Below the pieces are notes generated by a model. It searched no databases. It saw only the letters and a program-made list of their open reading frames with translations, and had not been told where the DNA came from. DNA of 64,000 nt, taken from an uncultured Candidatus Binatia bacterium. Its GTDB lineage: Bacteria; Desulfobacterota; Binatia; Bin18. The stretch covers positions 2,304,001 to 2,368,000 of the forward strand of contig OZ241744.1 of assembly GCA_965200965.1 (NCBI GenBank), written 5' to 3'. Positions 6,587 through 20,681 of the stretch are shown here, in pieces; the stretch's first letter is position 1; every line of letters starts with the position of its first letter. The position numbers were made by a program, and so were the translations under genes.

Positions 6587-8967
6587 TGTTTGTACGCCAT
6601 GCGGCGCACCCGCATATGACAGGGGTGATATTCGCCCTGCTCGTGGCGACCATCTTCGCCCATGTCTGGTTCGGGAGCGCTCCCCTGCCGTTTGGCGGGC
6701 CGAACGTCATCCTCGCCGCCCTCGCTGTCATCCTGTCGCTGGCCCATGTCATGTCGCGCACACTCCGGCTCGACACACCCTCAGCCCTCATCCACGCCCT
6801 CATCAGGGACTTCCGCCCGGTCCTTCCGATCATGGCGGTATCGCTGCTCCTCCTCCTCTGGGCCTTGGCCGTCTATCTCTTCACCGACACACTCAGGCCA
6901 ACGCGGCTCGCCACGATGGGAATGGGTATCGGCCTCCTGTTTGCCGTCTATCTGTCCGTGGACAGCGTTTACAGAGCCACACTCATGGTGCTGGCGATCA
7001 GTATGGCAACCGCTGTATCCACCCTGTTCGGTATGGCCGTCACCTTTCTGGGAGACCCCTTCCTGACTCTCTGGGTGCAGATTGCCACCGTCAATGAGCA
7101 GCGCCTGTATACCATTCTGACCGAGGGCAGAACAGCCGGACTGAGCCCGGATACGGTTGCCCTGAGCTATCAACTTGCCATCGCCCTCCCCCTGGCCTTC
7201 GCCGCTTTCCTGTCCAATCTGTTCGGGCACGGCACAGCGTCCAGAATGACCCGTCGTGTTATCAGATCGACCGGAAGGCGACACGCTGGGTCCTCGATGA
7301 TCAGCCTCATGCTCTATGCCGCAGTGGCGATCATGGTCATTGGCATAACCGTGAATGCCACGCGCTCGGCGATCTGCGGCGTCCTGGTCGGCGCTGTCAT
7401 CATTGTCCTGCTGTCCCCGAGAAACCCGCAGATTTGGAGACGCCTGCTGTTTCTTGTCCCCTTGATTCCACTCTGGCTGCTCGTATTTTCCGATACCGCT
7501 CTCACCACCGCCGGCCCGACCATCGCCGGCCTTGCCCGTGCCGGTCCCGCCAACGGCACCCGCCACACCTTTGCCGGCCTGACCCCAGAGGAGGTCTACA
7601 CCGTCCAACTCCGCGTCCGTGACACCCAGGGCTACGGCCCGCCCAGCCCCGAACTGGCCGCTATCCCCAAACCCGACGGCAGCCTCGGCCTGACTTGGCA
7701 GGACCCCACCGAGCCCCCGACCCGCTACCAGTTCCGGCTTCGGACGGCGGACGCTTGGTGGCCCTGGCTGAGCTTCGAGCCAACCCCGAGTTCTGACGCG
7801 CCTTCCAGGCTCAACGGTCAAGGCCCGTCTGTCAATGGCCTCGCCGTTATTGGGCTCGCCGCTGCCAGCGACCACCCCCGCCAGGGCCATACCTTTGCCG
7901 GCCTGACCCCCGGCGAGGGCTATACCATCCAACTCCGCGTCCGTGACACCCAGGGCTACGGCCCGCCCAGCCCCGAACTGACCACTACCGCGGGGCGATA
8001 CGGCAGCTTCGTATTCACCTGGCAGGACCCTGCCGAGCCCCCGACCGGCTATCAGTTCAGGATCCGCCGGGCGAACACCACGGCCTGGTTCCCTTGGCAG
8101 ACTTTTGAACCTGACCTGAGCAGTCAAGGCCCGACCATCGCCGGTCTCGCTTCCCGCACCACCAGAGCCGACCCCAGCCACACGCTTACCAGCCTGGCTC
8201 CAGGGGAGAGGTATTTCGTCCAGCTTCGCGCCCGGAACGACACGGTCTACGGCCCGCCCAGTGCCACCCTGACCGCCATATCGGACCGTGTCGGCCACCT
8301 TAGACTCACCTGGCAGGACCCTGCCGACCTCCCGACCGGCTATCAGTTCCGGATCCGCCGGGCGAACACCACGGCCTGGTGGCCCTGGCAGACCTTCGAG
8401 ACCGCCCGTCAACCCAGCAGGGACAAACTCATCGCCGAGGCGCGAGCTGCTCTTCACAATGTTGAGGGATCATCACATCTGGGGGCGAATCTCCACAGCT
8501 TTTCTCACACAGCAACACGAGCCCGCATCCCCATAACAATCATGGCATTCCGACACGCCCTGGCCTACCCACTTGGAACCGGTCATTACTGGCCAAGCCT
8601 GTCATACCTCCCCGCGGGGCTGACCGCCCCAATGGTAAACTGGATTTTCACTCGTCATAGTCCGCATAACCAGTTTCTCGTCATTCTGGTCTACTACGGG
8701 TTTCCCGGCCTGATCTTGCTGATCCTGTTCTATGCGCTTGTGTCACGCTCGCTCCTGCACTCCGGAACATTGCTCATACGTTCGCCCGATACAGCCCTCT
8801 CTTTCCTCCTCGCCGCCCTTACTGGTGCGCTGGCCGGCTACGGCATCAACAGTCTCCTGCATAATACAGGGCCGTTCGTCGGTGACTGGTATCACTTCTT
8901 CCTGATCGGGCTGGCGTTCAGCCTCGGACGCATCGCCGCCTCTCGTCAAGCGAACGATCAGGAGTGA
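6583..8967 (+). CDS. O-antigen ligase/polymerase (Wzy_C-like) membrane protein with inserted fibronectin type III-like repeats
   Basis: Multiple TM segments, TRSA motif, PLGTG and PHNQFLVILVYYGFPG ligase motifs; three FN3-like units in the large loop. Confidence 0.8.
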   Translation: MMFVRHAAHPHMTGVIFALLVATIFAHVWFGSAPLPFGGPNVILAALAVILSLAHVMSRTLRLDTPSALIHALIRDFRPVLPIMAVSLLLLLWALAVYLFTDTLRPTRLATMGMGIGLLFAVYLSVDSVYRATLMVLAISMATAVSTLFGMAVTFLGDPFLTLWVQIATVNEQRLYTILTEGRTAGLSPDTVALSYQLAIALPLAFAAFLSNLFGHGTASRMTRRVIRSTGRRHAGSSMISLMLYAAVAIMVIGITVNATRSAICGVLVGAVIIVLLSPRNPQIWRRLLFLVPLIPLWLLVFSDTALTTAGPTIAGLARAGPANGTRHTFAGLTPEEVYTVQLRVRDTQGYGPPSPELAAIPKPDGSLGLTWQDPTEPPTRYQFRLRTADAWWPWLSFEPTPSSDAPSRLNGQGPSVNGLAVIGLAAASDHPRQGHTFAGLTPGEGYTIQLRVRDTQGYGPPSPELTTTAGRYGSFVFTWQDPAEPPTGYQFRIRRANTTAWFPWQTFEPDLSSQGPTIAGLASRTTRADPSHTLTSLAPGERYFVQLRARNDTVYGPPSATLTAISDRVGHLRLTWQDPADLPTGYQFRIRRANTTAWWPWQTFETARQPSRDKLIAEARAALHNVEGSSHLGANLHSFSHTATRARIPITIMAFRHALAYPLGTGHYWPSLSYLPAGLTAPMVNWIFTRHSPHNQFLVILVYYGFPGLILLILFYALVSRSLLHSGTLLIRSPDTALSFLLAALTGALAGYGINSLLHNTGPFVGDWYHFFLIGLAFSLGRIAASRQANDQE
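7255..7285. repeat. 31-bp palindromic REP-like element, copy A (inside CDS)
   Basis: cgtgttatcagatcgaccggaaggcgacacg, flanked by gaccc/gggtc. Confidence 0.8.
7513..8400 (+). repeat. three FN3-like coding repeats (units start near 7564, 7888, 8179)
   Basis: Near-identical DNA blocks such as caactccgcgtccgtgacacccagggctacggcccgcccagccccgaactg; protein GLTPG-x-Y-x-VQLR...GPPS and LTWQDP...YQFR. Confidence 0.9.
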
Positions 8968-9007
8968 ACGTGTCATCAGATCGGAGGAAGGCGACACCTT
9001 CACTCCT
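8960..9007. repeat. palindromic REP-like element, copy B (overlaps stop codon)
   Basis: aggagtgaa-cgtgtcatcagatcggaggaaggcgacacc-ttcactcct, with perfect 9-bp outer inverted repeat. Confidence 0.78.
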
Positions 9008-9019
9008 CCTGTTACAGCC

Positions 9020-19379: not shown

Positions 19380-20588
19380 TCAGATAATTCCGGCCTGCTG
19401 AAGCCGCCCAAGCTCGTCCTCAGTCATGCCGAGTCCGGTATACACCTCGGTGTTATGCTGGCCGAGGCACGGGGCCGGGCGGCGCAGCGTCCACGGCGTT
19501 TCAGACATGGTGTGGGGGGCCGTCGGGTAGGTGTGGACACCGGCCTGGGGATGGGCAATCTCGGCAAAAAAGCCACGGACTTTCAGGTGCTCGGAGTGCA
19601 GCAGATCGCCCATCGTTGAGACCGGCGCAAACGGAATGCGCCGGGCCTGGGCCTGGTGGTACAACTCATCGACCGACTGCTCCCTGATCCACGGCTCCAG
19701 GAAGAGCTGCAGCGCGTCCCAGTTCCCGGCACGGTCCAGACGGGTCTTGAAGAGTTCTTCGTCGGCCCAGTCCGGATTACCCATCAGATCAACAAAGCGC
19801 TGCCACTGGTGTTCTTCAACGCAGGCGACATAGATCCAGCCGTCTTTACACTCCATGATGTCGAGCGGCCGGATGGCCTTGTTGCCGGTAAAGCGCACCA
19901 CAATCTGGTCGGCATAGGTCGGCATGATCCCGGCAAACTCGGAGATGCCCATCAGGCACTCCTGGACCGAAAAGTCGATGTGCTGGCCGTGACCATCCTG
20001 GAAACGGGCAAACAGCGCGGCCAGCGACGCGGTGGCCGCGTGGACGCCGGCCTGAAAACCCGACTGCTGGCCAAAGACCCGCAGGGGCGGCAGGTCCTCG
20101 CTGCCGGGGCCGCCGCCGTTCAGGTAGCACAGCCCGCCGGCGTTCCAGCTCGTCAGGTCATAGGCCGCATAGTCTGCACGCGGTCCGCTCAGGCCAAAGG
20201 GCGTAATTGAGGTCATCACCAGACCGGCGTTCAGACCGGCCAGACGCGCATAGTCCAGGCCGTGGGCGGCCATGCGGGTCGGGTGGACATTATGGATCAG
20301 CAGGTCGGCCTTCCCGACCAGGCGGTGAAACACCGCCTGGCCGTGGGGGGCGGTCAGGTCCAGGGTCACGCCCCGCTTGTTGGTGTTCAGATACAGGTAC
20401 AGCCCGCTCTTTTCCGGGTGGGGCGTCCCGCCCGGAAACGGCCCCCGGTGGCGAGCGGAATCGCCGCCGGGCGGTTCAATTTTGATCACCTCGGCTCCCA
20501 TGTCGGCCATCAGTTTGGCCGCATAGGACGCCCCGACCATCTCTCCACACTCAAGAATCGTGAAGCCTTCCAGCGCAAGCCCCGGCAT
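19380..20588 (-). CDS. family III CoA-transferase (CaiB/BaiF), probably lacking the catalytic Asp
   Basis: ADMGAEVIKIEPPGGD, NTNKRG; QQSGFQAG at the position of the Asp motif. Confidence 0.9.
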   Translation of the reverse strand: MPGLALEGFTILECGEMVGASYAAKLMADMGAEVIKIEPPGGDSARHRGPFPGGTPHPEKSGLYLYLNTNKRGVTLDLTAPHGQAVFHRLVGKADLLIHNVHPTRMAAHGLDYARLAGLNAGLVMTSITPFGLSGPRADYAAYDLTSWNAGGLCYLNGGGPGSEDLPPLRVFGQQSGFQAGVHAATASLAALFARFQDGHGQHIDFSVQECLMGISEFAGIMPTYADQIVVRFTGNKAIRPLDIMECKDGWIYVACVEEHQWQRFVDLMGNPDWADEELFKTRLDRAGNWDALQLFLEPWIREQSVDELYHQAQARRIPFAPVSTMGDLLHSEHLKVRGFFAEIAHPQAGVHTYPTAPHTMSETPWTLRRPAPCLGQHNTEVYTGLGMTEDELGRLQQAGII

Positions 20589-20631
20589 GATACCCTCCTT
20601 GTTGACACATGATAACCGCGCCAGCGGTCAT

Positions 20632-20681
20632 GAGGAGTGAACGTGTCGCCGTCCGGTCGATCTGCCGACACGCTCACCCTC
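20632..20681. repeat. palindromic REP-like element, copy D (intergenic, inverted orientation)
   Basis: gaggagtgaa-cgtgtcgccgtccggtcgatctgccgacacg-ctcaccctc. Confidence 0.8.

Follow-up and report, generated by a model that had tools for sequence, protein, structure and literature searches.

Small mobile palindromes in bacteria

The small dispersed repeats (SDRs) of Nostoc, reportedly described by Elhai et al. in 2008, are 21 to 27 nt long, precisely inserted and structured, and have no known mobilizer. One of them, SDR5, inserts into HIP1 sites, according to passages of PMC4390886. Rickettsia palindromic elements (RPEs) are lineage-restricted, noncoding palindromic repeats with many in-frame insertions in unrelated, often housekeeping, genes (Ogata et al. 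2000); the sections that deal with them quote 44 insertions (PMC10969869) and give about 105 to 150 bp and a CGTC end tag (PMC3733652), and they are also tabulated in one portion of PMC3184786. REPs and REPINs with a RAYT (TnpA-REP), and TIR repeats with a TIRYT, are hairpins of a size similar to the element described here, at about 100 per genome, some of them intragenic, moved in trans (relevant parts of PMC3733652, PMC3116915, and PMC6006769). Bacterial MITEs (Nezha, Correia, RUP, and IMU) consist of terminal inverted repeats round a short core, with empty and filled orthologous sites (excerpts of PMC3184786 and PMC10969869), and span 70 to 300 bp (in the text on sizes of PMC3733652). In the IS200/IS605 family (IS608, ISDra2), hairpins guide single-strand excision and insertion without duplication, and IS608-type transposition targets the lagging-strand template (both from the same portion of PMC6006769). 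It is not yet settled how palindromic repeats as small as RPEs, SDRs, and CGTC-tagged REPs can move when no transposase is dedicated to them; part of PMC3733652 makes this point for CGTC REPs.

The 51-bp element described here belongs with the RPE/SDR-like microelements, a name for a descriptive kind, and not with REPs or canonical MITEs. Like RPEs and SDRs, it has inserted in frame, many times over, in protein genes that are unrelated to one another and whose orthologues are without it; it shares with RPEs restriction to a lineage, and with SDRs very small size, exact insertion, and structure. It differs from RPEs in being a single hairpin of 51 bp whose blunt insertion, local hopping, and clustering at the origin have been measured, and is set beside them by description, the sequences having been compared through Rfam only (no match); compared with SDRs, it is twice as long and has long terminal arms and a weak target preference. 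The earlier note on this DNA had proposed a REP/MITE family, a label that we drop. Against REPs and REPINs, the element has no tetranucleotide guide foot (GTAG/GTGG or CGTC), no Y1 gene flanked by it, and, as neither arm forms a hairpin by itself, no doublet structure, and it is not enriched downstream of genes, whereas REPs are mainly extragenic. It does have the terminal inverted repeats round a noncoding core of a MITE (15-bp covarying arms and a 19-nt loop), but it lies below their size range, makes no target duplication, and has no insertion sequence with matching ends in the loci scanned. Compared with IS200/IS605 elements, PATE-like ones included, which resemble the model that we propose below, it has no fixed target tetranucleotide at the junction, no replication-strand bias, and no Y1 gene. 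A full-text search, which reaches few subscription journals, found no paper on the element, nor any on repeats of this kind in Binatia.

Four copies in the window and their host genes

The window, a stretch of 64,000 nucleotides from an uncultured Candidatus Binatia bacterium (genome G000; contig OZ241744.1, positions 2,304,001 to 2,368,000), holds four copies. Their cores lie where the earlier note had placed them, at 7255-7285 (+), 8969-8998 (+, one base short), 11220-11250 (+), and 20642-20672 (-), and the two types of outer stem are as it described; the unit length of 31 bp had to be corrected to 51 bp (10+31+10). All four copies are missing from the orthologous loci in both congeners compared (G007 and G004), as expected if the peptides are insertions, which the earlier note had suggested.

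Copy A (7245..7295, +) lies in frame within a predicted gene (6583..8967, +) for a 794-aa O-antigen-ligase-like membrane protein with fn3 repeats (fn3, E 3e-22; Wzy_C, E 1.6e-6, under the curated cutoff), and the ligase is a net 48 bp, or 16 aa, longer than the orthologues of G007 and G004. Copy B (8959..9008, +) is 50 bp long, having lost one loop base, and its left arm supplies the stop codon of the same gene; both congeners are without it, and the C terminus reads QANDQE here and QANEALPQP in the G007 orthologue. Copy C (11210..11260, +) is read on the opposite strand, in frame, near the C terminus of a 188-aa hypothetical protein (11184..11750, -) without a Pfam match, which has 17 aa more than its orthologues and is 91% identical to that of G007 outside the insert. 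Copy D (20632..20682, -) is intergenic, between a CoA transferase III gene and a divergent 90-aa ORF, and is absent from G007 and G004. Rfam gave two weak matches, neither of them on a copy, and none over the four window copies.

Structure and copy number of the element

The element consists of 15-bp arms, a conserved loop of 19 nt, and a single base left unpaired at either end. The earlier note would have been refuted by the absence of further copies; a genome-wide weight-matrix search found 93 strong ones (score of at least 20 bits) in G000, or 109 counting indel variants. The copies are not due to chance, because the reversed genome, used as a control, gave no match even at 12 bits or more. 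The ends read purine-AGG ... CCT-pyrimidine, and in the position logo no base beyond the 51 bp is conserved. At arm pairs 3, 5-8, 10, 14, and 16, 76 to 85 of the 93 copies are Watson-Crick paired (34 to 66 after shuffling), and the arm covariation score is 0.56 (reached by none of 500 shuffles) versus 0.20, with slid controls at 0.09 to 0.12 (34 copies); these covariation counts are inflated by the shared descent of the copies. Neither strand is favored for folding, because G.T and A.C stem mismatches are about equally frequent (89 versus 107).

The end pair behaves differently from the internal ones. It is A..C in 30 copies of G000, G..T in 26, A..T in 18, and G..C in 5 (Fisher P 6e-5), and it is not common to nearest sequence neighbors (0.31 versus 0.30 expected), whereas internal pairs are (0.60 to 0.79 versus 0.29 to 0.53 expected). 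In a second lineage the anticorrelation was not significant (P = 1), with A..T in 27, G..T in 10, A..C in 5, and G..C in 1 of 45.

Copies inside genes

Of the 93 copies, 44 lie in frame in predicted coding sequences and 39 are intergenic, although the genome is 85% coding, and this depletion from coding DNA suggests a purifying filter. The intragenic copies can survive because 51 bp make 17 codons and stops are often missing from five of the six frames. The openness in several frames that the earlier note had pointed out holds; none of the copies was found in the one frame that nearly always holds a stop. Its view of a dispersed mobile palindrome of noncoding origin that adds peptides to proteins is likewise borne out by these counts and by the orthologues without the element. 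Inserts of 17 residues are found even in core genes, namely, those for threonyl-tRNA synthetase and CCA/poly(A) nucleotidyltransferase (identified by PDB match), and further insert-bearing genes resemble dnaX, murF, and cas3 (judged by eye). Core genes thus accept 17-residue inserts, and the added peptides in the predicted host proteins are most likely tolerated rather than adaptive. In the second lineage, a length that is a multiple of three went with an open frame in 5/23 versus 1/18 cases, a difference that is not significant (P 0.2). Intergenic copies track the available space, and no excess was found between convergent genes (4 of 39 versus 7 expected; P 0.26).

Insertion sites

Both flanks of 66 out of 98 copies were present in the G007 stretches compared. 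At these 66 sites, the difference was exactly 51 bp in 23 cases and 47 to 55 bp in 10, 9 copies were shared, and 24 sites were blurred by other indels. In the 22 gap-clean cases, the best cut coincides with the element's own ends, and the flanking bases match the empty site in 17 to 22 of the 22 at each position. Reciprocal gaps of 51 to 52 bp occur in G000 at several copies found only in G007. Direct repeats of at least 4 nt outside the element ends were seen in none of the 93 copies, and flank matches of 1, 2, and 3 nt (30, 11, and 5 of 93) are near the estimated expectation from base composition. The element has inserted exactly and without target duplication.

There is a weak, one-sided target motif on either strand (not-A, G/T, and C at positions -6 to -4 relative to the cut), present on at least one side in 57 of 93 copies of G000 (24% background) and in 25 of 45 in the second lineage (22% background). 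The end pair is weakly linked to the target side in G000 (35:21; 7:8 in the second lineage). No conserved base was found at -1 to -3 or +1 to +3 of the insertion sites, nor any shared core at the junctions, and no leading/lagging bias appeared in loop orientation (52:41), end type (27:29), or target side (34:30). Contigs of related strains, which drop rare variants, showed no empty site or 51-bp skip among the matches listed in two sets of four runs, one set for the window and the other for a second region, a single run covering little.

Genomic spread and relatives

Copies are close to their own kind. A neighbor within 5 kb was found for 51 of the 93 (21 expected), and pairs less than 10 kb apart differ at 10.0 positions versus 15.0 (permutation P 2e-4). 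They also crowd around the replication origin, with 61 of 109 copies within 500 kb of dnaA in G000, 29 of 44 in G051, and 21 of 31 in G043; counted as clusters, the P values are 5e-4, 8e-6, and 2e-7, respectively. These shares put 56 to 68% of the copies in 17 to 28% of the chromosome. We considered parS as the cause of this clustering and rejected it: the arm is unlike what we take to be the parS consensus, and two parS-like sites lie elsewhere.

Related elements of 50 to 58 bp, in which the arms are retained and the loop is replaced, were found in one Binatia family, in two of its genera, and in none of 124 genomes of other families. The hosts are uncultured. Two congeners with complete genomes, G004 and G014, have no match. 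Matches are many in G000, G001, G003, G005 to G007, G024, G043, G047, G050 to G053, G055, and G056, and essentially missing from G045 and G049 as well as from G004 and G014. The core pattern had no match in viral contigs and only two loci in the GTDB collection, both of G007; seven unpaired viral matches to the single-arm pattern are taken as chance.

Search for a mobilizer

None of the families tested (RAYT/Y1, IS110, DDE_Tnp_1 and DDE_Tnp_4 among the DDE families, rve, and serine recombinase) is present or tracks the element. The RAYT/IS200-type mobilizer that the earlier note had suggested finds no support: Y1 genes have no association with the element (0 in G000, 3 of 8 genomes of the genus, and 6 of 15 others), being absent from G000, G007, G003, G005, G050, G051, G053, and G055, present in the element-bearing G001, G006, G024, G047, G052, and G056, and present also in the element-poor G002, G049, and G054, and no arm lies within ~1.5 kb of any of the 14 Y1 loci scanned in relatives. 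Derivation from IS110/IS1111 was rejected too, with no DEDD recombinase in G000 or in the 14 genus-g8 genomes and no shared junction core; IS110 occurs in 5 of 21 other genomes, the element-free G004 among them. DDE_Tnp_1 is absent from G000 and G007 and present in 3 of 5 genomes, DDE_Tnp_4 in none of 5, and rve in 1 of 5, without a match in G000 or G007. Resolvase was found in 8 of 22 genomes (none in G000 and G007), Cas1 in 4 of 5, element-free G004 included, and GIY-YIG in 21 of 22, with only a UvrC-sized frame in G000. A search for IS91 Y2 gave zero in all 22 genomes but also in the control genomes, which makes it uninformative.

Integron attC sites go with an integron integrase and with RYYYAAC/GTTRRRY boxes in arrays. 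This candidate was discarded, as the only tyrosine recombinases of G000 are two open frames of XerC/D size (316 and 326 aa) and the copies are dispersed. A half-site scan of G000 showed no solo arms framing a gene, and no insertion sequence with the element's ends was seen there or in the relatives' IS110/Y1/rve loci, one of which (L164) has a single arm-like match that is not paired. Reading by eye the first 48 to 95 residues encoded by the genes that separate close copies, and by 287 low-scoring genes, revealed no transposase, although this test is weak.

Mode of movement

Movement in trans, as the earlier note held, is necessary because 51 bp encode no enzyme, although no such enzyme was found among the families searched. 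Selfish DNA without a transposase is a tentative and rather doubtful answer: a hairpin of about 50 bases may be copied nearby by a host replication/repair enzyme or a novel strand transferase, with blunt joints, the terminal pair reset at each move (the moving strand starting with A and ending with a pyrimidine), the arms retemplated from each other, and local hopping and origin dosage carrying copies toward oriC. If so, this would be a general route for adding loops of 17 to 18 residues to core proteins, and a comparison, within the two genera, of genomes rich in the element with those free of it would single out the enzyme responsible for the long-unexplained RPE/SDR-type spread. A minimal MITE is unlikely; its 16-bp ends would be terminal inverted repeats left by an insertion sequence that has been lost or lies outside the sample, and the transposase of that sequence would cut double-stranded ends and join them bluntly. 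A MITE of this kind would explain ends kept across two genera while the loop changes, a target preference symmetric about the cut, and a patchiness within genera (none in G004 and G014) that fits a traveling transposase. However, target duplication, which the element does not show, is part of the MITE definition (as worded in a section of PMC3184786), the three families compared (DDE_Tnp_1, rve, and DDE_Tnp_4) have no match in G000 or G007, no gene framed by solo arms was seen in G000, and with arms 19 bp apart two transposase ends would hardly fit on double-stranded DNA.

Quite improbable is a REP/REPIN-type element whose mover, a RAYT/TIRYT Y1 HUH enzyme, has since been lost here: hairpin, size, and in-frame intragenic copies do resemble REPs and TIR repeats (as portrayed in part of PMC3733652), and some element-bearing relatives have Y1 genes, but the tetranucleotide foot is missing, and so are Y1 matches in G000 and seven other genomes and arms at the Y1 loci, while element-poor genomes carry Y1 as well. 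We consider it very improbable that the host maintains the element, either as a place near the origin where, for example, a chromosome-organizing protein binds or loads, or as an RNA hairpin in transcripts. The origin-centered distribution in three genomes, the conserved loop and arms, and the copies fixed across the related strains examined (among the matches listed) would suit such a site; lineage-specific positions (G007 shares only 9 of the 66 sites that can be compared), the empty congeners, intergenic copies that follow available space without an excess at convergent 3' ends, depletion from coding DNA, and the lack of an Rfam match covering a copy speak against it. Scarcely credible is a transcribed hairpin reverse-transcribed and then inserted. 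For the SDRs of cyanobacteria, movement through RNA has reportedly been suggested, and all five congeners tested have a reverse transcriptase gene, but that of G000 is interrupted by a stop and has no copy nearby, G004 has the gene and no element, neither strand has a G.U bias, and an RNA intermediate would not account for local hopping.

We favor, with a probability of roughly 0.6, a noncoding 51-bp selfish hairpin with about a hundred exact insertions, moved by an enzyme that would cut the folded strand at both feet and paste it locally. One strand would fold as a hairpin, a candidate enzyme, presumed to exist, would recognize the conserved 16-base ends and cut both feet, and the hairpin would be pasted into nearby DNA without a stagger. 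Local copying would probably pass through a single-stranded intermediate, or perhaps a cruciform. Repeated local hops, with the higher copy number of origin-proximal DNA, may have built up the origin-centered cloud. Points against this reading are that no mobilizer was found in the families searched, that there is no replication-strand bias, that neither strand is favored for folding, that the end-pair anticorrelation is not significant in the second lineage, and that no empty site appeared among the matches listed for related strains. For the reaction, the element sets limits that have been measured: its ends are exact, nothing is duplicated, the terminal base is unpaired, the target motif is one-sided, hops are local, and copies cluster at the origin in three genomes. 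Within the two genera, some 15 genomes have many matches and 4 have essentially none, and therefore a whole-proteome profile could name the enzyme.

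Structure and copy number of the element

The genome under study is a single contig of 3.62 Mb with a GC content of 61.5%, of which the window makes up positions 2304001-2368000. The four palindromic cores reported there by the earlier note were all found exactly where it had placed them, within a 51-bp element present as copies A (7245..7295), B (8959..9008), C (11210..11260) and D (20632..20682, minus strand). The genome-wide search that it had proposed, carried out with an iterated weight matrix, recovered 93 copies at ≥20 bits and 98 at ≥13 bits, while the same matrix found 0 matches at ≥12 bits in the reversed genome used as a control. 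A profile HMM detected 109 loci at E ≤0.1, including indel variants like copy B (best null match, E 5). The information in the sequence logo is confined to exactly 51 positions, falling off beyond them, and the element is real. Rfam gave no match over any of the copies A-D, and a full-text literature search returned no paper describing the family.

The stem is formed by positions 2-16 with positions 36-50, and its variable pairs covary through Watson-Crick swaps; pair 6/46, for example, is paired in 79 of the 93 copies versus 34 after shuffling. The top pairs by corrected mutual information are stem pairs, and the covariation score of a 34-copy alignment, a value inflated by shared descent, was 0.56 versus 0.20 when shuffled and 0.09-0.12 when slid. 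The 19-nt loop is conserved, and its inner palindrome does not covary. The exception among the stem pairs is the terminal one, Watson-Crick in only 24/93 copies (41 shuffled), with A..C and G..T favoured, i.e., a single configuration read from opposite strands, and G..C rare (p 6e-5). Nearest sequence neighbours have their internal pairs in common but not the terminal pair. In a second lineage (45 distinct copies from metagenome contigs), terminal A..T prevails (27) and G..C occurs once; since the anti-correlation of the terminal bases is not significant there, resetting of this pair at each move is taken as a lead only.

Insertion into empty sites

Copies A-D are all absent from the syntenic regions of two congeners, G007 and G004. 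In protein alignments with orthologues, the O-antigen-ligase-like protein that hosts copy A has 16 additional residues and the 188-aa hypothetical protein with copy C has 17, bearing out the earlier proposal that the element adds peptides. The left arm of copy B ends the ligase 3 residues earlier than in its G007 orthologue. Repeats of fn3 type also occur inside this ligase (window 6583-8967; Pfam fn3, E 3e-22); their number likely varies, since the orthologous open frames span 690 aa (G007) and 640 aa (G004).

We compared the 98 copies with ca. 1 Mb of G007 sequence, in which both flanks were present for 66. Twenty-three of these sites differ by exactly 51 bp and 10 by 47-55 bp, 9 copies are common to both genomes, and 24 sites are confounded by further indels. 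In the 22 gap-clean cases the best-fitting cut coincides with the element ends (weight 13.1 at offset 0, against 3.1 at -1 and 3.6 at +1), and the flanking bases agree with the empty site in 17-22 of 22 at each position. No direct repeats of ≥4 nt were found across the junctions of any of the 93 copies. Copies private to G007 give the reciprocal gap pattern, and mobile insertion of the 51-bp element is close to certain. Related-strain contigs obtained in other studies span the copies of the window and of a second region, with no 51-bp gap among the matches listed, so these insertions predate the related strains and postdate the split from G007.

Some G007 loci are less regular. In L031 (1460-1545), an older copy harbours the left half of another element, with 29 extra bases compared to the genome under study, which suggests self-insertion followed by deletion. 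In L015 (1470-1560), one of several imprecise cases, the G007 copy lies beside a site already resembling its left arm in the genome under study, and the difference is 58 bp.

Target sites and genomic location

The bases adjoining the cut are unconstrained, but 86 of 93 copies have C at -4 or G at +4 (background 52%). A fuller one-sided motif is found in 57/93 copies (background 24%) and in 25/45 of the second lineage (background 22%). Copies are clustered along the genome, and nearby ones are more similar in sequence than those far apart. The dnaA gene and a cluster of DnaA boxes are located at 2.70 Mb, with the GC-skew minimum at 2.48 Mb. Within 500 kb of dnaA we found 61 of 109 copies, as well as 21/31 in G043 and 29/44 in G051 (exact-arm, zero-mismatch elements only in the latter), both related Binatia genomes, and the excess persists when each cluster is counted once. 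No orientation feature of the copies tracks replication direction. Local hops, compounding with the higher dosage of origin-proximal DNA, would account for this clustering.

Copies within genes

Hexamer-model gene calls (3,341 genes, 85% coding) place 44 of the 93 copies within predicted CDS, 33 of them internal, 10 near the C-terminus and 1 near the N-terminus. They use three sense frames (9, 13 and 12 copies) and two antisense (9 and 1), in agreement with the earlier claim that the element is open in more than one frame; the sixth frame, free of stops in just 5 of the 49 non-coding copies, is unused. A threonyl-tRNA synthetase carries a copy in its C-terminal domain, at the point where the alignment to solved structures ends, and a CCA/poly(A) nucleotidyltransferase shows a clear insertion relative to 1miv directly before the conserved "ED..RRD", with the same copy in G007. 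The pattern looks like tolerated selfish insertion, filtered by stops. One 937-aa gene (L144:1-2814), cas3-like by eye and with a weak Cas1 match nearby, contains three copies in three frames.

Distribution among relatives

With 34 copies we built a covariance model, whose matches count both strands under capped scoring and are not copy numbers. Within the family it matched 18 of the 40 other genomes (6/7 in genus g1, 11/14 in g8 and one weak match in g10), and it matched none of 124 genomes from 18 further families of this class. The g10 match (L129:1501-1551) falls on a hairpin whose arm is partly similar and which may be a distant relative. Relatives retain a closely related 16-base arm with a different loop, and their elements measure 50-58 bp (mode 54, 23/45). 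An arm search gave zero matches in G004 and G014, and 1 and 2 in G049 and G045, which is the control level. This patchy presence suggests transfer between lineages. Among the ten sequencing runs containing at least half of the window's words, four carry the label sponge metagenome.

Proposed mode of transposition

We favour, with a probability of slightly less than 0.6, a copy-and-paste mode in which a single hairpin strand would be copied and then pasted by blunt joining. This reading draws on the conservation across genera of arm pairing rather than loop sequence, on arms only 19-23 nt apart, and on local hops without target duplication; what speaks against it is that no replication-strand bias and no enzyme were found. 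The main rival, a MITE inserted by blunt joining, appears unlikely. The earlier assignment to a REP/MITE family holds as far as a dispersed, inserted palindrome is concerned, but with no duplication and no Y1 match in the genome the element falls outside both REPs (PMC3733652, PMC3116915) and canonical MITEs (PMC3184786) on membership tests. The same applies to IS110 and attC, and to IS200/IS605, which it resembles in proposed chemistry (PMC6006769). The likeness to RPEs (PMC10969869, PMC3184786, PMC3733652) and SDRs (PMC4390886) is one of outcome.

Contrary to the RAYT/IS200-type mobiliser flanked by the element that had been anticipated, the genome, at 99.3% completeness, lacks any match to Y1, IS110, DDE_Tnp_1, DDE_Tnp_4, rve or Resolvase, although at least 33 of its insertions are missing from G007. 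The mobilising enzyme was either lost after the burst, or belongs to a family other than these, or is a core host protein.

Several other loci were noted. RAYT-like Y1 proteins of 171 aa occur in G006 (L089:1471-1986) and G001 (L090:1471-1986), where the element is not nearby. G043 has 19 Resolvase-family matches (L171, L176 and L179 among these loci), many in long frames and far above the 21 other tested genomes. A stop codon breaks the frame of a stand-alone reverse transcriptase (L085:1048-2421), predicted to be probably a defence enzyme, in the genome under study; in G007 the frame is intact. Outside the window, the 3.6-Mb genome has six Cas1-family loci (679287, 1699368, 2070674, 2217397, 2834101 and 3364310) and two long tandem arrays of ca. 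2.4-kb paralogous genes (271700-305600 and 1131700-1165200), 86-95% alike within and between arrays.
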